Shown one piece after another: positions 52,291 through 64,000 of a DNA stretch of 64,000 bases. Positions within the stretch are counted from its first letter, which is position 1. Each line of letters starts with the position of its first letter. The translations under genes were made by a program, and so were the position numbers. Location: positions 26,660,001-26,724,000 of the forward strand of contig JANJGN010000023.1 of assembly GCA_026770705.1 (NCBI GenBank). The letters are read 5' to 3'. The DNA comes from Isurus oxyrinchus (lineage: Eukaryota). The notes under the pieces are model-generated. The model was not told where the DNA came from and searched no databases. It saw only the letters and a list, made by a program, of their open reading frames with translations.

Positions 52291-53766
52291 CTCCCACATT
52301 ACGGTTGGTCTGGTAGGTAGAGACCTGCCCATGAACCCCATTAAAAACGATGTGGTGCTGCCTGCGAAGCCTTGTGCTGATGACTGCAAGTGCTGCCCGA
52401 AGCAGGCTAGGCAAACCAACCTTGAGGTCCCAAGCGAAGTGCAGCTCGCCAGCTGCACATCGCTTATGCAATCACGCCGACATACCTGGATGATCCAATG
52501 TGTGGCGATGATTCCAGCAAGCATGGCTTATCATGAGATGCTAAAGTATTGAAAATAGGTTCCCAACGTGCAATGGTGGGAAACACAGCCTCCCATTGAC
52601 AGGTGGAGTGAGTGATCGCAAACGACGTCATGAGACCAATTTTTGCGATCTGCTTATATTTCTGTTCCTGCCCGCTATGACGTCCGTTGCAAACAACAGC
52701 AGGCAATTCCACCCAATGACTTTACAAATTGAATGGGTCATTCAGATACAAAGACTCTGGCTGTCTCAAACTCTCAAGGTATGAAAGCCACAACACAGGA
52801 TGTATAATCAACGTAGACACCCACCTTATTTGGAAAAGGACTTTAGACTTGAAACAGGTCACATAATAAAACAGCCATACATTTGCTTTAATGGGTGCCC
52901 ATTACAGAATCTGTCTGACCTTCCTTTCCACTGAAAAAATAAAGGCCAGTTTTATACTCCAGTTGAAAATTACCCCCAAACTGTTACCACCAAAGAAATA
53001 TTTGGAAGCAACAGTCGTTCTTATAATAGGACAGTGTTCGATTACTCAAAGGGTTTAGGAAATATGATAAATGTGTGCAGCTAACAGTGGGAATTTGGAC
53101 ATAGATTGAAAAATTACTGACTTTATTATCTTCTACTACTGAATGCTGCACCAATTAGTGCGCAAGCAAACAAGGACAGCTGTAATTAAGCAACATGGAC
53201 AAAGCTCTCTGAGGCCTCATGAAGTTTACCTGGTAAGTAAAGGAACTATAAACATCAGGAAAGTGCCTGATTTGCTTTCCAGGTTGCACTGAATTAGCAA
53301 GACCTGGTTGGGTTGTAATCATTGCCCTCAATGCCCCTGAATTAGGGATCAAATATATCAGCATGGTTCATGATCCTGACCATTATTCGGTGACTATTCA
53401 AGTGAATGTGTGTAGATCTTAAATAATGGGTCAAAATAAGGTATCTTAAACAAAAATTAAAAAATACCTGGAAAAACTCAGCCGGTCTGGCAGCATCGGT
53501 GGAGAAGAGTACAGTTGACGTTTCGAGTCCTCATGTCCCTTCAACAGAATTAAGTAAAAATAGGAGAAAGGTGAAATATAAGCTGGTTTAAGTGGGGTGG
53601 GGTGGGGGGGGGGGGGGAGAAAGAAGGGGTGGGGGTGATTATTGGGAGAAGCGAGCAGTGATAGGAGGATAAAGACAAAAAAACTGCAGATGCTGGAAAT
53701 CCAAAACAAAAACAGAATTACCTGGAAAAACTCAGCAGGCCTGGCAGCATCGGCGGAGAAGAAAAG

Positions 53767-53805
53767 AGTTGACGTTTCGAGTCCTCATGACCCTTCGACA
53801 GAACT
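53767..53805 (-). ncRNA. Minimal type-I hammerhead-ribozyme-like motif (CUGUCGA core variant) in 3' pLTR
   Basis: AGUU-CUGUCGA-A-GGGUC-AUGAG-GACUC-GAAACGUC-AACU: stem I AGUU/AACU, stem II GGGUC/GACUC, palindromic ACGU in place of stem III. Confidence 0.65.
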
Positions 53806-54201
53806 TGATTTCGAGTCCAAGAAAGAGTTGAAATATAAGCTGGTTTAAGGTGTGTGTGTGGGGGGGGCGGAGAGATAGAGAGAGAGAGAGAGAGGTGGGG
53901 GGTGTGGTTGTGTGGACAAACAAGCAGTGATAGAAGCAGATCATCAAAAGATGTCAGCGACAATGGTACAATAGAACACATAGGTGTTAAAGTTAAAGTT
54001 GGTGATATTATCTAAACGAATGTGCTAATTAAGAATGGATGGTAGGGCACTCAAGGTACAGCTCTAGTGGGGGTGGAGGGAGCTTAAAAGATTTTAAAAT
54101 ATTTAAAAATAATGGAAATAGGTGGGAAAAGAAAAATCTATATAATTTATTGGGAAAAAAAAGGGGGAAAACAGAAAGGGGGTGGGGATGGGGGAGGGAG
54201 C

Positions 54202-56980
54202 TCACGACCTAAAGTTGTTGAATTCAATATTCAGTCCGAAAGGCTGTAAGGTGCCTAGTCGGAAGATGAGGTGCTGTTCCTCCAGTTTGCGTTGGGCTTC
54301 ACTGGAACAATGCAGCAAGCCAAGGACAGACATGTGGGCAAGAGAGCAGGGTGGAGTGTTAAAATGGCAAGCGACAGGGAGGTTTGGGTCATTCTTGCGG
54401 ACAGACCGCAGGTGTTCTGCAAAGCGGTCGCCCAGTTTACGTTTGGTCTCTCCAATGTAGAGGACAGCACATTGGGAGCAACGAATGCAGTAGACTAAGT
54501 TGGGGGAAATGCAAGTGAAATGCTGCTTCACTTGAAAGGAGTGTTTGGGCCATTGGACGGTGAGGAGAGAGGAAGTGAAGGGGCAGGAGTTACATCTTTT
54601 GCGTGGGCATGGGGTGGTGCCATAGGAGGGGGTTGAGGAGTAGGGGGTGATGGACGAGTGGACCAGGGTGTCCTGGAGGGAGCGATCCCTACGGAATGCC
54701 CATAAGGGGGGTGAAGGGAAGATGTGTTTGGTGGTGGCATCATGCTGGAGTTGGCGGAAATGGCGGAGGATGATCCTTTGAATGCGGAGGCTGGTGGGGT
54801 GATAAGTGAGGACAAGGGGGACCCTATCATGTTTCTGGGAGGGAGGAGAAGGCGTGAGGGCGGATGCGCGGGAGATGGGCCGGACACGGTTGAGGGCCCT
54901 GTCAACGACCATGGGTGGAAAACCTCGGTTAAGCAAGAAGGAGGACATGTCAGAGGAACCGTTTTTGAAGGTAGCATCATCGGAACAGATGCGACGAAGG
55001 CGAAGGAACTGGGAGAATGGGATGGAGTCCTTACAGGAAGCGGGGTGTGAGGAGCTGTAGTCGAGGTAGCTGTGGGAGTCGGTGGGTTTGTAATGGATAT
55101 TGGTGGACAGTCTATCACCAGAGATTGAGACAGAGAGGTCAAGGAAGGGAAGGGAAGTGTCAGAGATGGACCACGTGAAAATGATGGAGGGGTGGAGATT
55201 GGAAGCAAAATTAATAAATTTTTCCAAGTCCCGACGAGAGCATGAAGCGGCACCGAAGTAATCATCGATGTACCGGAAAAAAGTTGTGGAAGGGGGCCGG
55301 AGTAGGACTGCAACAAGGAATGTTCCACATACCCCATAAAGAGACAGGCATAGCTGGGGCCCATGCGGGTACCCATAGCCACACCTTTTATTTGGAGGAA
55401 GTGAGAGGAGTTGAAGGAGAAATTGTTCAACGTGAGAACAAGTTCAGCCAGACGGAGGAGAGTAGTGGTGGATGGGGATTGTTCGGGCCTCTGTTCGAGG
55501 AAGAAGCTAAGGGCCCTCAGACCATCCTGGTGGGGGATGGAGGTGTAGAGGGATTGGACGTCCATGGTGAAGCGGAAGCGGTTGGGGCCAGGGAACTGGA
55601 AATTGTTGATGTGATGTAAGGTGTCAGAGGAATCACGGATGTAGGTGGGAAGGGACTGGACAAGGGGAGAGAGAAGGGAGTCAAGATAACGAGAAATGAG
55701 TTCTTGGGGCAGGAGCAAGCTGAGACGATCGGTCTACCGGGGCAGTTCTGTTTGTGGATTTTGGGTAGGAGATAGAAGCGGGCTGTCCGAGGTTGGGCGA
55801 CTATCAGGTTGGAAGCTGTGGGAGGGAGATCCCCAGAGGAGATGAGGTCAGTGACAGTCCTGGAAGCAATGGCTTGATGTTCAGTGGTGGGGTCATGGTC
55901 CAGGGAGAGGTAGGAGGAAGTGTCTGCGAGTTGACGCTCAGCCTCCGCGAGGTAGAGGTCAGTGCGCCAGACAACAACAGCACCACCCTTGTCAGCGGGT
56001 TTGATGACAATGTCAGGGTTGGACTTGAGAGAATGGAGTGCAGTAAGTTCAGAGAGAGACAGGTTAGAATGGGTGAGAGGAGCAGAGAAATTGAGATGAC
56101 TAATGTCGCGCCGACAGTTCTCAATGAAAAGATCAAGAGAAGGTAAGAATCCAGAGGGAGGGGTCCAGGTGGAGGGAGAATATTGGAGATGGGTAAAAGG
56201 ATCCGTTGAACTGGGAGAGGACTCCTGCCCAAAGAAGTGAGCCCGGAGACGAAGACGGCGGAAGAAGAGTTCAGTATCATGCCGAGCCCGAAATTCATTG
56301 AGGTGAGGGCGTAAGGGTATGAAACTAAGTCCTTTGCTGAGCACTGAACGTTCAGCATCGGAGAGGGGAAGGTCAGGGGGTATAGTGAATACACGGCTGG
56401 GGTTGGGATTGGAAGATGGGGTGGGGACGGAGGGACAGGCCGGGGTGGAGGGTCCTAAATGGGTGTTGGTGTCGATGAGTTGTTGGAGCTTGCGTTCCTT
56501 AGCACTTGAGAGAAAGAGAAAAAGTTTCTTGTTGAGGTGTCGGATGAGCCGAAGGATAAAATGAAACTGGGGGCACGCGCAGCTTTGAAAAAGGGTACGG
56601 CGGTGCTGCTGGAGGGAGAGGTCGAGTGTGTTCATATGGCGGCGCATGGCACTGAGTGTGGATTTCAGAATGTGACGGGAACAGCAGTCCGAGAAACGTT
56701 TTATGTCACGGAGATACCGATAATCCTGGGTGGGTTCGAAAGATGAGGGGTGGAATTTCAGTTGAAATCCACGTGGGGTAAGTCGAAGACGGAGACAGTC
56801 ACTGAGAAAGGAGATATGGCTGTGAAAGCGGGTTTTAGTAAACACCTTGTCAAACACCAGGAGGGAAATGGAAAGCAAAGAAGGTGAACAAGGCAACAGA
56901 GAGATACGGAAATCTTGTCGCAGAGAGGAACAGAACTTCTTCAAGGAGGTAGGCATTTCTTGAAGAGCAGTGGCAGTCAA
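54202..56980 (-). pseudogene. Penelope polyprotein (N-terminal domain, RT, Cys-rich linker, GIY-YIG endonuclease), ~920 aa with two 1-bp frameshifts
   Basis: HISFLSDCLRLRLTPRG; IKPADKGGAVVV; FYLLPKIHK..PGRPIVS; DVQSLYTSIP; GVAMGTRMGP; RYIDD (55262-55276); CPRKRCNSC; LVYCIRCSQCAVLYIGETKR..RFAEH; GLNIEF. Shifts at ~55704 and ~55280. Confidence 0.93.
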
Positions 56981-57090
56981 TTAAACACAGAGATAAAGAC
57001 AAAAAAACTGCAGATGCTGGAAATCCAAAACAAAAACAGAATTACCTGGAAAAACTCAGCAGGTCTGGCAGCATCGGCGGAGAAGAAAAG

Positions 57091-57129
57091 AGTTGACGTT
57101 TCGAGTCCTCATGACCCTTCGACAGAACT
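57091..57129 (-). ncRNA. Minimal hammerhead-like motif in 5' pLTR
   Basis: Identical to 53767-53805. Confidence 0.65.
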
Positions 57130-60100
57130 TGATTTCGAGTCCAAGAAAGAGTTGAAATATAAGCTGGTTTAAGGTATGTGTGATAGGAGGAGATAACCAA
57201 AAGATGTCACAGACAAAAGAACAAAGAGGTGTTGAAGGTGGTGAGATTATCTAAAAGAATGTGCTAATTATGAAAGGATAGCAGGATGAGCAAGGTACAG
57301 TGGGGGTGCGGTGAAATAAGACCAAAAGGGCATAAAAGGTATGGATAAATGATTGGTGGAATACATTAAAAATAATGGAAATAGGTGGGAAAAGAAAAAT
57401 CTATATAAACAAAAAAGCAAAAAGGAGGGGGAAGAAACGGAAAGGGGGTGGGGATGGAAGAGGGAGTTTAAGATCTAAAATTGTTGAACTCAATATTCAG
57501 GCTGTAAAGTGCCTAGTCGGAAGATGAGGTGCTGTTCCTCCAGTTTGCGTTGAGCTTCACTGGAACAATGCAGCAGGCCAAGGACAGACATGTGGGCAAG
57601 AGAGCAGGGTGGAGTGTTAAAATGGCAAGCGACAGGGAGGTTTGGGTGATGCTTGCGGACAGACCGCAGGTGTTCTGCAAAGCGGTCGCCCAGTTTACGT
57701 TTGGTCTCTCCAATGTAGAGGAAACCACATTGGGAGCAACGAATGCAGTTGAAGAAAATGCAAGTGAAATGCTGCTTCACTTGAAAGGAGTATTTGGGCC
57801 CTTGGATGGTGAGAAGAGAGGAAGTGAAGGGGCAGGTGTTGCATATCTTGCGTTTGCATGGGGAGGTGCCATAGGAGGGTGTTGGGGACTAGGGGGTGAT
57901 GGAGGAGTGGACCAGGGTGTCCTGGAGGGAATGATCCCTACGGAATGCCACCGGGGGAGTGAAGGCAAGATGTGTTTGGTGGTGGCATCATGCTGGAGTT
58001 GGCAGAAATGGCGGAGGATGATCCTTTGAATGCGGAGGCTGGTGGGGTGATAAGTGAGGACAAGGGGGACCCTATCATGTTTCTGGGAGGGAGGAGAAGG
58101 CATGAGGGCGGATGCGCGGGAGATGGGCCGGGCACGGTTGAGGGCCCTGTCAACCATTATGGGTGAAAAGCCTCGGTTAAGGAAGAAGGAGGACATGTCA
58201 GAGCAACTGTTTTTGAAGGTAGCATCATCAGAACAGATGCGACGGAGGCAAAGGAACTGAGAGAATGGGATGGAGTCCTTGCAGGAAGCGGGGTGTAGTC
58301 AAGGTAGCTGTGGGAGTCGGTAGGCTTGTAATGGATATTGGTGGACAGTCTATCAACAGAAATTGAGACAGAGAGGTCAAGGAAGGAAAGGGAAGTGTCA
58401 GAGTTGGACCATGTGAAAATGATAGTGGGGTGGAGATTGGAAGCAAAATTAATAAATTTTTCCAGGTCCCGACAAGAGCATGAAGCAGCACCGAAGTAAT
58501 CATCGATGCACCGGAGAAAGAGTTATGGGAGGGGGCCGGAGTAGGACTGGAACAAGGAATGTTCCACATACCCCATAAAGAGACAGGCATAGCTGGGGCC
58601 CAAGCGGGTACCTATAGCCGCATCTTTTATTTGGAGGAAGTGAGGGGAGTTGAAGGAGAAATTGTTCAGTGTGAGAACAAGTTCAGCCAGACGGAGAAGA
58701 GTAGTGGTGGCTGGGGATTGTTTGGGCCTCTGTTCGAAGAAGAAGCTAAGGGCCCTCAGACCATCCCGGTGGGGGATGGAGGTGTGGAGGGATTGAACGT
58801 CCATGGTGAAGAGGAGGCAGTTGGGGCCAGGGAACTGGAAATTGTTGATGTGACATAAGGTGTCAGAGGAATCACGGATGTGGGGGGGAAGGGACAGGAC
58901 AAGGGGAGAGAGAAGGGCATCAAGATAGCGAGAAATGAGTTCCATGGGGCAGGAACAGGCTGACACGATTGGTCTGCCGGGACAGTCCTGTTTATGGATT
59001 TTGGGTAGGAGATAGAAGCGAGCCGTCCGAGGTTGGGCGACTATCAGGTTGGAAGGAGATGAGGTCAGTGTCAGATTTGTAAACAATGGCTTGATGTTCA
59101 GAGGTGGGGTTATGATCCATGGTCCCCAGCTATGTCTGTCTCTTTACGGGGTATGTGGAACATTCCTTGTTCTAGTACTACTCCGGACCCCTCCTGATGA
59201 TTACTTCGGTGCTGCTTCATGCTCTCATCGGGACTTGGAAAAATTTATTAATTTTGTTTCCAATCTCCAACCGTCCATCATTTTCACATGGTCCATCTCT
59301 GACACTTCCCTTCCCTTCCTTGACCTCTCTGTCTCAATTTCTGATGATAGACTGTCCACCAATATCCATTACAAGCCTACCGACTCCCACAGCTACCTTG
59401 ACTACAGATCCTCACACCCCGCGTCCTGTAAGGACTCCATCCCATTTTCTCAGTTCCTTCACCTCCGTCGCACCTGTTCTGATGATGCTACCTTCAAAAA
59501 CAGTTCCTCTGACATGTCCTCCTTCTTCCTTAACCGAGGTTTTCCACCCACAGTAGTTGACAGGGCCCTCAACTGTGTCCAGCCCATCTCCCGCGCATCC
59601 GCCCTCACGCCTTCTCCTCCCTCCCAGAAACATGATAGGGTCCCCCTTGTCCTCACTTATCACCCCACCAGCCTCCGCATTCAAAGGATCATCCTCCGCC
59701 ATTTCCGCCAACTCCAGCATGATGCCACCACCAAACACATCTTCCCTTCACCCACTCCGGCGGCATTCCGTAGGGATCGTTTCCTCCGGGATACCCTGGT
59801 CCACTCCTCCATCATCCCCTACTCCTCAACCCCCTCCTACGGCACCTCCCCATGCAAATGCAAGATATGCAACACCTGCCCCTTCTTTTCCTCTCTCCTT
59901 ATCATCCAAGGGCCCAAATACTCTTTTCAAGTGAAGCAGCATTTCACTTGCATTTCCTTCAACTTAGTCTACTGCATTCATTGCTCCCAGTGCGGTTTCC
60001 TCTACATTGGAGAGACCAAACGCAGACTGGATGACCGCTTTGCAGAACACCTGCGGTCTGTCGGCAAGCATCACCCAGACCTCCCTGTCGCTTGCCATTT

Positions 60101-60662
60101 TAACACTATACTCTGCTCTCTTGCCCACATGTCTGTCCTTGGCTTGCTGCATTGTTCCAGTGAAGCTCAACGCAAACTGGAGGAACAACACCTCATCTTC
60201 CGACTAGGCACCTTACAGCCTTCCGGACTGAATATTGAATTCGACAACTTTAGATCTTGCCCTCCCTCCTCCATCCCCACCCCCTTTCTGTTTCTTCCCC
60301 CTTCTTTTTGTTTTTTCAAATAATTTATATAGATTTTTCTTTTCCCACCTATTTCCATTATTTTTAATGTATTCCACTGATCATTTATCCATACATTTTA
60401 CGCCCTTTTAGTCTTATTTCACCCCACCCCCACTGTACCTTGCTCGTCCTGCTATCCATTCTTAATTAGCACATGCTTTTAGATAATATCACCACCTGTA
60501 ACACTTTTTGTTCTTTTGTCTGTGACATGTTTTGGTTATCTTCTTCTACCACTGCTCACTTGTCCCAACAACCACCCCCTCCTTCTCTCTCCCCACCACC
60601 ATTACCCCCGCCCTCCCACCATTTAAACCAGCTTATATTTCACCCCTCTTTTACTTTTACTT

Positions 60663-60701
60663 GGTTCTGTTGAAGGGTCAAGAGGACTCGAAACGTCAAC
60701 T
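60663..60701 (+). ncRNA. Minimal hammerhead-like motif (CUGUUGA) in older pLTR
   Basis: GGUU-CUGUUGA-A-GGGUC-AAGAG-GACUC-GAAACGUC-AACU; sister copy at 53513-53551 (-). Confidence 0.6.
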
Positions 60702-61481
60702 GTACTCTTCTCCGCCGATGCTGCCAGACCTGTTGAGTTTTTCCAGGTATTTTTTATTTTTTGTTTTGGATTTCCAGCATCCGCAGTTTTTTGTTTTTTA
60801 TTTTAACAATAAGGTACCGTCACTGATTTAATATTCTGCTCACAGTCACTGTAAAAAGCTTGCATGTGAATATTTAAAAGCGATTGTGAAGGATGACTGT
60901 AGCCAAGTAGGAAGTCAATTCTTCAGGGGAGGAAGGAGAAGGGTTTAAATTGATGGAAAAGATAAAAAGGAGAGTATTTTTATGTGGAATAGTGTGTAGT
61001 TGAATAATATAAAAATAATTGGCTGTGCAGTTGTCTCCAAAATCAGGAATAAATTTTGCTGATATTTAATATTTTTGATCTGATCATTACTAATGGATCA
61101 GTAGTTGCATTCACTAGAGGCTTGAGGGATGGGAAGATGTAATGGCTAAATTCAGATTAAGACATAATGCAGGAAGATTCAGTTTAAGTTGGAAAAGGCC
61201 AGGAGCTGCTGTTAACTTATGTGACTAAGATCAGTTTTATTTTCCCCCCACCTCATTAAGTATTTCACAAAATCTTGGGTAATATCTTCTCTGTTTGAGA
61301 AAACCAAGAGAAAGGTGATTTTTTTTCCTTTTAAATTTAGGATGTTTGAAGAAAATTATGGGAATACTGTTCCTGAAATGTAACCTGCTCAGGAGTAACA
61401 AAAGAATATGTGAACATGCACTAGTAATTCCTAAAGGATTTTCAAGTAATTAACAAACCATGTAGCCAGTATAAATGCTGA

Positions 61482-61848: not shown

Positions 61849-62195
61849 CTAAGTATGTTAATGCAACTGAGGAATGCACAAAATATGTGGGGATGGGTCC
61901 TTGCTGACTCTAGCTAGCTTTGCATATTTAGGGGCTCTGGTTATGTCTGCAATAGAGAAACAGAAACCAAATTTTAGTGCAAAGCAAGATAACTCCCAGG
62001 TAACAAGTATGACAGAATGTCATTGAAGGATTGTTTTTTCTATCAGTAACTTGGAGGAACTGGTTCTGGTGGGTGGGATGGGTCCAGGGGGGTGGTGCGG
62101 GGGGTGGGGGCGGGGGTGCTGGGGAGGTGGGAGGCAGGGGCGCCATGTGTTCAGAAAAATTAAATAACCCAAAAGGAAGGCATAAATATCACAGA

Positions 62196-62414
62196 ACAAA
62201 AACAGAATTACCTGGAAAAACTCAGCAGGTCTGGCAGCATTGGCGGAGAAGAAAAGAGTTGATGTTTCGAGTCCTCATGACCCTTCGACAGAACTGACTC
62301 GAAACATCAACTCTTTTCTTCTCCGCCGATGCTGCCAGACCTGCTGAGTTTTTCCAGGTAATTCTGTTTTTGTTTTGGATTTCCAGCATCCGCAGTTTTT
62401 TTGTTTTTATCTCT
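62196..62414. mobile_element. 219-bp fold-back insertion made only of Penelope pLTR sequence
   Basis: Reverse pLTR 62196-62295 + forward pLTR 62296-62414; 14-bp TSD ATAAATATCACAGA (62182-62195, 62415-62428). Confidence 0.9.
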
Positions 62415-62469
62415 ATAAATATCACAGAGTTGGTTTTTACCTACCAGTGTGTAATAATAAGAAAGAAAG

Positions 62470-63280: not shown

Positions 63281-63510
63281 CAGCTGAGACGAAACAAATG
63301 AGCTAACTAAATGCACTTGCTATTACATTGCAGCTGTCAATCATGCAAACAACTTCCAGGTCAGTGAGGGCAATTAAAGAACTTCCTGTACTTCAATATA
63401 GTTCAATATACACCTCTACCCACAAAAACATTTAATGAGCAACAAGGTCTACAATAGTTCAAGAGTTCAAATAATCACAAACATTGCTGGAACATCCAAT
63501 CCTTGTATGT

Positions 63511-63745
63511 AGAAAAACTCAGCAGGTCTGGCAGCATCGGCGGAGAAGAAAAGAGTTGACATTTCGAGTCCTCATGACCCTTCGACAGAACTTGAGTGGA
63601 CTCGAACTCAAGTTCTGTCGAAGGGTCATGAGGACTCGAAACGTCAACTCTTTTCTTCTCCGCCGATGCTGCTAGACCTGCTGAGTTTTTCCAGGTAATT
63701 CTGTTTTTGTTTTGGATTTCCAGCATCTGCAGTTTTTTTGTTTTT
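63511..63745. mobile_element. 235-bp fold-back insertion made only of Penelope pLTR sequence, with a hammerhead-like motif on each strand
   Basis: Arms 63512-63597 and 63606-63691 are near-perfect inverted repeats; motifs at 63554-63592 (-) and 63611-63649 (+); 13-bp TSD AATCCTTGTATGT (63498-63510, 63746-63758). Confidence 0.9.
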
Positions 63746-63783
63746 AATCCTTGTATGTGTTGTTCACTTGGCTTTATTCTATA

Positions 63784-63845
63784 GGGTTGATTTTAATTTC
63801 TTCCGCCTGGATCTGAATGAGGCGGTAATGGTTTGAAAATGGCCC
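63784..63845. mobile_element. Possible 62-bp micro-MITE
   Basis: GGGTTGATTTT / AAAATGGCCC ends; internal CCGCCT/AGGCGG hairpin; flanks ATA/ATC. Confidence 0.4.
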
Positions 63846-63859
63846 ATCGACATGCGAGC

Positions 63860-64000
63860 GTAAGAAATGGGAACAGGAGCAGGCGCTCGGCCTATTGATC
63901 TGCTCCGCCATTCAATAATTAGGGCTGATCTTCTACCTTAACTCCACTTTTCCACTTTATCCCCATATCCCTTAATCCTCCTAGTGCCCCAAAATCTAGC
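63860..64000 (-). mobile_element. CR1 3' UTR (continues beyond window)
   Basis: AGGAGCAGGC...GCTCCGCCATTCAATAA...GCTGATCTTCTACCT, similar to 9490-9570 and 46050-46130. Confidence 0.7.

Follow-up and report, generated by a model that had tools for sequence, protein, structure and literature searches.

A hairpin of head-to-head pLTR copies in Isurus oxyrinchus as a probable dead insertion of a Neptune-like Penelope element

Introduction

The window, a stretch of 64,000 nucleotides of Isurus oxyrinchus DNA, carries near its right end a 235-bp hairpin made of two inverted pLTR copies. The question raised by this locus is whether such a hairpin is a mobile unit in its own right or the residue of a single insertion by a larger element, and how its two arms came to lie head to head. 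We conclude that it is a real, young and ordinary stub of a known insertion class, with no sign of mobility of its own. We give a probability of about 0.7 to the reading that it is dead and stems from one insertion of a Neptune-like Penelope element, its head-to-head pLTR copies likely derived from priming of reverse transcription by both nicked target strands. The head-to-head layout has been published before; measured here are the presence of thousands of such stubs and a pairing rule followed by 101 of 121 pairs.

Structure of the insertion

Features of the locus and of its relatives in the window are listed in Table 1. The 13-mer AATCCTTGTATGT stands at both ends of the insert, encloses 235 bp (63511-63745), and has no third copy within the window. 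In a close relative, organism B, contigs from two studies (X6 and X12) lack the insert and join position 63497 directly to 63746. They contain the 13-mer once, so that the duplication is a true TSD; the perfect duplication had been described in the initial annotation. The left flank in organism B is identical at 298 of 298 bases, and the insertion is therefore young. On the right side (63746-63950), organism B differs at 5 sites in about 200 bp, versus 0 in 298 bp on the left. Contigs of organism A span both filled junctions and reach 7 nt into the insert on the left and 21-25 nt on the right, short of the 31 nt inside the insert that define bridging under the rule used here.

Table 1. Positions of the hairpin stub, its parts and related copies in the window.
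Feature	Position	Strand	Basis or remark
Left TSD copy, 13 bp	63498..63510	.	Repeat match; single copy at organism B empty site
Short arm, pLTR +77 to -9, tail-less	63511..63597	-	Stops about 20 nt before the short-arm end usual in the family (+93 to +99)
Hammerhead-like motif, minimal type I, bottom strand	63554..63592	-	U at core position 6
Junction and loop	63597..63605	+	63598-63605 is pLTR -17 to -10 of the long arm
Long arm, pLTR -18 to +130	63597..63745	+	Alignment to pLTR
Hammerhead-like motif, minimal type I, top strand	63611..63649	+	U at core position 6; layout as in the available text of PMC4209133
One-sided tail, pLTR +99 to +130	63714..63745	+	Between the two preferred arm ends of the family
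Right TSD copy, 13 bp	63746..63758	.	Repeat match and organism B empty site
Near-full-length copy of parent family	53668..57182	-	pLTR, frameshifted ORF, pLTR; not proven to be the source of the stub
Second hairpin stub, same family	62196..62414	.	Arms meet at -4 and +18; short and long arm
14-bp TSD of second stub	62182-62195 and 62415-62428	.	Flanks 62196..62414

In the pLTR numbering used here, position 0 is the C of the CUGUCGA box of the hammerhead, at window position 63615. Both arms match the pLTRs of the element at 53668-57182 with 97-98% identity, are unequal in extent (left -9 to +77, right -18 to +130), and differ in that the tail is on the right arm only. They form an inverted repeat (63512-63597 and 63606-63691) of 86 nt each, 98% complementary across an 8-nt spacer, which bears out the pLTR stem of about 86 bp described earlier. 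The two mismatches in 86 positions fit either later mutation or two templates. The predicted RNA fold of the stub has an energy of -179.3 kcal/mol (z = -25.3), and none of 200 shuffled sequences was equally stable. At the junction, the T at 63597 matches both arms, a microhomology of 1 nt. The octamer GGACTCGA, which had been taken for a distinct loop, proves to be ordinary pLTR sequence belonging to the right arm (-17 to -10). No ORF of at least 100 aa is confined to the insert, as had been noted, and one stop-to-stop frame of 105 aa on the minus strand runs across it.

The parent element and neighbouring copies

The near-full-length copy at 53668-57182 encodes an RT, a Cx4CxxC linker and a GIY-YIG domain with CCHH, in frameshifted form; CPRKRCNSC and YCIRCSQC..YIG with two downstream His are present in its translation. 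Neither Pfam nor PDB gave a match for the frameshifted ORF pieces, and the identity of the ORF rests on a homologue search: the homologues carry PF00078 and PF01541, and among those with a name the closest belong to rays and sharks, which makes an elasmobranch host likely. Neptune and Nematis elements are described in the available text of PMC8557442 as having a CX2-5CxxC linker between RT and EN together with CCHH in EN. By these motifs the translated sequence of the parent element falls within the Neptune/Nematis definition, and we refer to it as Neptune-like.

The stub has the features of an EN+ Penelope-like element (PLE) insertion: the pLTR of an RT/GIY-YIG element, a TSD with an empty site, an inverted 5'-truncated copy at the 5' end, and a one-sided tail of 30-40 bp. 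The earlier reading of a discrete retrotransposition product, and of an extremely truncated Penelope insertion, is upheld by the TSD, the empty site, and a duplication length and arm ends that are usual for the family.

A second stub lies 1.3 kb away (Table 1), is independent, and has another junction; it shows a G>A change at +28 mirrored on both arms. Elsewhere in the window, positions 53435-60816 form a 7.4-kb composite of two subfamilies, with copies in tandem on the minus strand and one inverted copy on the plus strand, bounded by the 9-bp repeat AATAAGGTA (53435 and 60808), which may be a TSD. Just past the window end, broken frames at L116:4868-5764 resemble a PIF/Harbinger-type transposase.

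Arm ends and pairing across the family

Head-to-head pairs were collected from stretches of contig C1 (92 pairs) and from BLAST hits ranked on the stub as query (29 pairs), giving 121 in all; sampling was concentrated in the first 30 Mb of C1. Arm ends concentrate at +93 to +99 and at +129 to +134, and arms were classed as short (end at +88 to +108) or long (end at +118 to +150). A short arm is paired with a long arm in 101 of the 121 pairs, the tailed arm extending a further ~35 nt beyond the short end (near +98). The remainder comprises 16 pairs of a shorter-than-usual with a long arm, the class to which the stub belongs, two long-long pairs, one short-short pair, and one pair of a short arm with another type. 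A TSD of 13-15 bp was found in 76 of 112 pairs, with a mode of 14, and none was found in 12. The layout is constant across sizes, with arms from 100 bp to 2 kb. The outer ends show a mean microhomology of 1.1-1.2 nt versus 0.45-0.55 nt in permuted data, a weak excess in which some long ends are misplaced in a T-rich repeat.

The upstream ends of the arms were compared in 75 short/long pairs. The ends lie within 10 nt of each other in 46; the tail-less arm extends more than 10 nt further upstream in 21, by more than 1 kb in some, and the tailed arm does so in 8 (21 versus 8, p = 0.024). In those 21 pairs each arm holds sequence that is absent from its partner, so that neither was copied from the other. 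Non-CpG variants are common to both arms at 0.0052 per site, about 13 times the 0.0004 of shuffled pairs (maximum 0.0011 per site in 200 shuffles), which argues that both arms come from one source, although shared variants could alternatively have arisen by conversion between the arms after insertion. The two arms of a pair are also correlated in length (Spearman 0.74, n = 33). The family-wide changes that differ between arms, non-CpG sites being counted on the sense strand, comprise 96 C>T and 26 G>A, where the reference C:G ratio is 2.6 to 1. A C>T change at +58 was considered as a subfamily marker and rejected: it occurs in 7 of 29 BLAST-ranked pairs versus 0 of 85 others, and its confinement to the BLAST-ranked loci makes it an ascertainment effect.

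Upstream ends also cluster when arms are taken without regard to pairing. Among 100 unselected arms (the first of 113,780 matches to a pLTR 30-mer), 44 start between -20 and +27, two of these belonging to a subfamily with different upstream sequence, and 6 of 30 ORF-linked pLTRs start between -24 and +20. Such a cluster of 5' ends at the edge of the hammerhead is compatible with transcription starting there and also with an RT stop. Splicing to an acceptor at the AG ahead of the core was weighed too and rejected, as the solo arms share no upstream exon; in D. virilis, an intron terminates at hammerhead helix I according to the available text of PMC4209133.

These comparisons bear on an alternative in which one cDNA or antisense RNA snaps back at its 3' end, is copied, and is integrated with staggered ends. 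A self-priming step on an antisense template has been proposed for Adineta PLEs, in the part of PMC3846280 available, and such fold-back accommodates arms that share source variants and lengths, the coupling of lengths being equally expected under it. The 46 of 75 pairs with upstream ends within 10 nt, the commonness of palindromic junctions, and the stub itself, whose short arm lies wholly inside its long arm, agree with it as well. However, snap-back of a cDNA requires the tail-less arm to lie inside the tailed arm, and 21 of 75 pairs break this requirement, in some cases by more than 1 kb, each arm holding sequence that the other lacks, which makes a simple fold-back impossible for them; a cut of fixed polarity in an antisense hairpin is in turn contradicted by the 8 pairs of opposite polarity. 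Fold-back or antisense self-priming is possible for nested pairs such as the stub, but unlikely.

Junctions, family size and the hammerhead-like motif

The exact junction of the stub has a single match in 4.98 Gb. A genome-wide pattern search requiring perfect 15-nt arms located at least 6,178 tight pLTR hairpins, and the first 50 of these have 34 different junctions. Some junctions recur: one is present at 298 loci, another at 6 of the 50, and one class has 9 loci. Within the 9-locus class, position -8 is A in four and C in five, on both arms each time; in the hairpin sample, one junction occurs with differing mirrored variants and one variant with differing junctions. That one junction can sit on several subfamily haplotypes, each repeated in both of its arms, points to hairpins formed anew more than once, and recurrence is best read as truncation hot spots. 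The initial annotation had held that independent truncation products would each have a unique junction; the stub does, and as a general rule this is too strict, given the recurrences at 298 and at 9 loci.

The 100 unselected arms include 64 in inverted pairs, 31 without a detected partner, and 5 in direct or tandem arrangement, and they mark 23 short hairpin loci (22 after excluding one of another subfamily). Extrapolation to the genome, which assumes that ratios at the start of C1 are typical, gives about 25,000 short hairpins; the ORF start of the family has 3,718 exact matches. Compound arrangements were also seen. At L235:1140-1518 a double hairpin (long, short, short and short arms) contains the same junction twice within one apparent TSD, and at G000:C1:3725400-3732400 (L007 and L093) a copy with a hairpin at its 5' end continues for ~950 bp within the ORF before switching to a pLTR at -20. 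In a ~17-kb satellite array with a 15-bp unit (L233-L234, G000:C3:11407000-11426800), at least seven near-identical hairpin stubs are found.

The initial annotation had reported one hammerhead-like motif per strand. A motif is present on each, and the canonical form is absent: both read CUGUCGA in place of a CUGANGA core with A6, and the bottom copy has lost its ACGU palindrome in helix III through a CpG-type C>T at 63561. On paper the layout is type I, with GAAA..NUH boxes; the top-strand motif has a helix I of 4 bp, a helix II of 5 bp, an extra A after A9, a palindromic ACGU, and a predicted cut after 63645. The commonest form of the family, with 60,876 exact copies, has U at core position 6. 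A natural A6C variant is reported in PMC3088659 to cleave at less than 0.1 per minute; the available text of that paper does not mention A6U. An Rfam scan of the window gave no hammerhead match, and its microRNA-precursor matches are far below gathering scores and reflect long stems only.

In a read-through transcript from either side, the antisense arm comes before the motif. Under equilibrium prediction the motif forms in the hairpin with a pair probability below 1e-18, and the folding penalty is 65 and 73 kcal/mol versus 3.4 and 7.2 for single arms; both hammerheads are thus predicted to be buried in the stem and unable to fold. RNA cut by the hammerhead was considered as a template and rejected, none of the 100 unselected arms beginning at +28 to +34. 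Two presumed-RNA runs, X16 and X17, contain contigs of family pLTRs and none on the flanks of the stub; X16 is from the organism that lacks the insert.

The other possibility raised by the initial annotation was a non-autonomous, retrozyme-like hairpin mobilised by the Penelope RT/GIY-YIG. A self-propagating family of this kind, retrozyme-like or MITE-like, would be transcribed whole and put back into the genome by the PLE protein. The abundance of short hairpins extrapolated above, the junctions found at 298 loci and at 6 of 50, and 15 loci of the 298 class with too few variants to exclude shared descent are what such a family would offer. A fixed unit at many loci, as in a retrozyme, is contradicted by the unique junction of the stub and by the 34 junctions in 50 hairpins; the occurrence of one junction on different haplotypes, and of one variant with different junctions, weighs in the same direction, and the satellite array accounts for the multiplication of at least 7 members of the 298 class. 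Both outer ends fall at sharp positions flush with the TSD. Same-strand hammerhead repeats arranged head to tail are absent from the stub, whose motifs, one per strand, are head to head and buried. An ADAR scar, looked for as a mark of a reinserted hairpin, is absent from the stub, and no short pair of the 121 has three or more one-strand A>G changes; the three pairs flagged for A>G are long and show all types of change. A self-propagating family is accordingly quite improbable.

Most improbable of all is that a solo pLTR acquired its inverted arm by later DNA rearrangement, or that the hairpin is an artefact of assembly: solo arms with TSDs do exist and perfect palindromes can mis-assemble, but one TSD surrounds both arms and fits the empty site exactly, organism A supplies junction contigs, the arms differ at two sites, and strict short-plus-long pairing is not expected from random rearrangement.

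Comparison with known systems

Inverted-pLTR insertions of EN+ PLEs with a one-sided 30-40-bp tail and a TSD are described in the available portions of PMC3846280 (Pen2a_Av of Adineta vaga) and of PMC8557442 (legend of Fig. 2). The stub shares with Pen2a_Av-type insertions the head-to-head pLTRs, the single tail, the TSD enclosing the whole unit and the palindromic junction, and differs in consisting of pLTR only, whereas the published examples in those texts retain ORF sequence.

PAc, the Poseidon-clade element of Anolis carolinensis, offers a biochemical comparison. In the available text of PMC11167929, the anole protein, predicted to act as a dimer, can both nick and extend the two target strands in vitro, using two internal start sites that bound the tail; hammerhead cleavage is not needed. 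PAc and the stub family are alike in having two preferred ends that bound the tail, starts downstream of the hammerhead, and no sign of hammerhead-cut RNA as template. They differ in that PAc starts inside the ORF whereas ends of the stub family lie just before the ORF start, and in clade, the stub family having a Neptune/Nematis-type linker. Neither one start site per strand nor head-to-head products are described in that portion of the paper.

The motifs resemble the minimal hammerheads of metazoan PLEs in their short helix I, extra base after A9 and palindromic helix III, but unlike those in the text available of PMC4209133 they have U at core position 6; motif pairs on opposite strands, 100-700 bp apart, are described there in Schistosoma. 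Animal non-LTR retrozymes (PMC7229834; bioRxiv 10.64898/2026.07.22.740005) are likewise ORF-less, hammerhead-bearing and related to PLE pLTRs, whereas the accounts available of them describe head-to-tail repeats with same-strand hammerheads and a circularising monomer.

The pairs found here have a further parallel in a different class of element. Twin priming of LINE-1 starts cDNA from both target strands and leaves an inversion inside one TSD, the inverted part being a different, upstream stretch primed by internal homology. Two-strand priming and an inversion within a single TSD would thus be common to both, whereas the two arms here derive from one and the same stretch, started at two fixed sites ~35 nt apart. 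No proposal of twin priming for PLEs and no description of these shark stubs was found in the literature searched, which did not extend to older subscription papers.

Discussion

What is observed in favour of our reading is the TSD, the empty site, the pLTR arms, the unique junction, and the rule that a tail-less arm is joined to a tailed one. From the extension of both strands in vitro (in the part of PMC11167929 available) together with the pair counts, we infer priming by two target strands, with one start site each. A dimer with GIY-YIG and RT would nick the two strands ~14 bp apart; one 3'-OH would start at the short internal site (~+93 to +99, and +77 in the stub) and the other at the long site (~+130 to +134). 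Both cDNAs would proceed upstream together on the RNA of one source element and halt just upstream of the hammerhead, where the RNA likely has its 5' end or a strong stop. End-to-end joining of the cDNA 3' ends over a microhomology of 0-2 nt, and filling in of the second strands, would follow. The hairpin would be a by-product of landing that is not copied onward as a unit.

Several observations weigh against two-strand priming, beside the nested arms of the stub. Start sites in the stub family are nearly always split one per arm, whereas in vitro the choice of site is alike on both strands, according to the available text of PMC11167929; the element used in vitro is of the Poseidon clade and the stub family is Neptune-like; and 31 of 100 unselected arms have no detected partner.

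A broader proposal, which we hold tentatively and at somewhat less than an even chance, is that twin priming is the main integration route of the family, with a dimer making two cDNAs on one RNA from fixed sites ~35 nt apart, the copy started upstream leading and halting at a transcript 5' end by the hammerhead. If so, the inverted pLTR and the one-sided tail would be explained in one step. How the inverted repeats of PLEs and their tails on one side arise is posed as an open question in the available text of PMC8557442. Thousands of young, TSD-bounded pairs in one genome favour priming from two strands and predict a specific product in vitro, and the family statistics open the origin of inverted repeats in PLEs to direct test. 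The stubs are also a pool of possible presence/absence markers between close species. Near-perfect hairpins of 80-100 bp at about one per 200 kb, by extrapolation, would constitute a large pool of possible dsRNA; were twin priming the main route, a PLE would itself plant some 25,000 near-perfect hairpins that could feed dsRNA silencing against itself.
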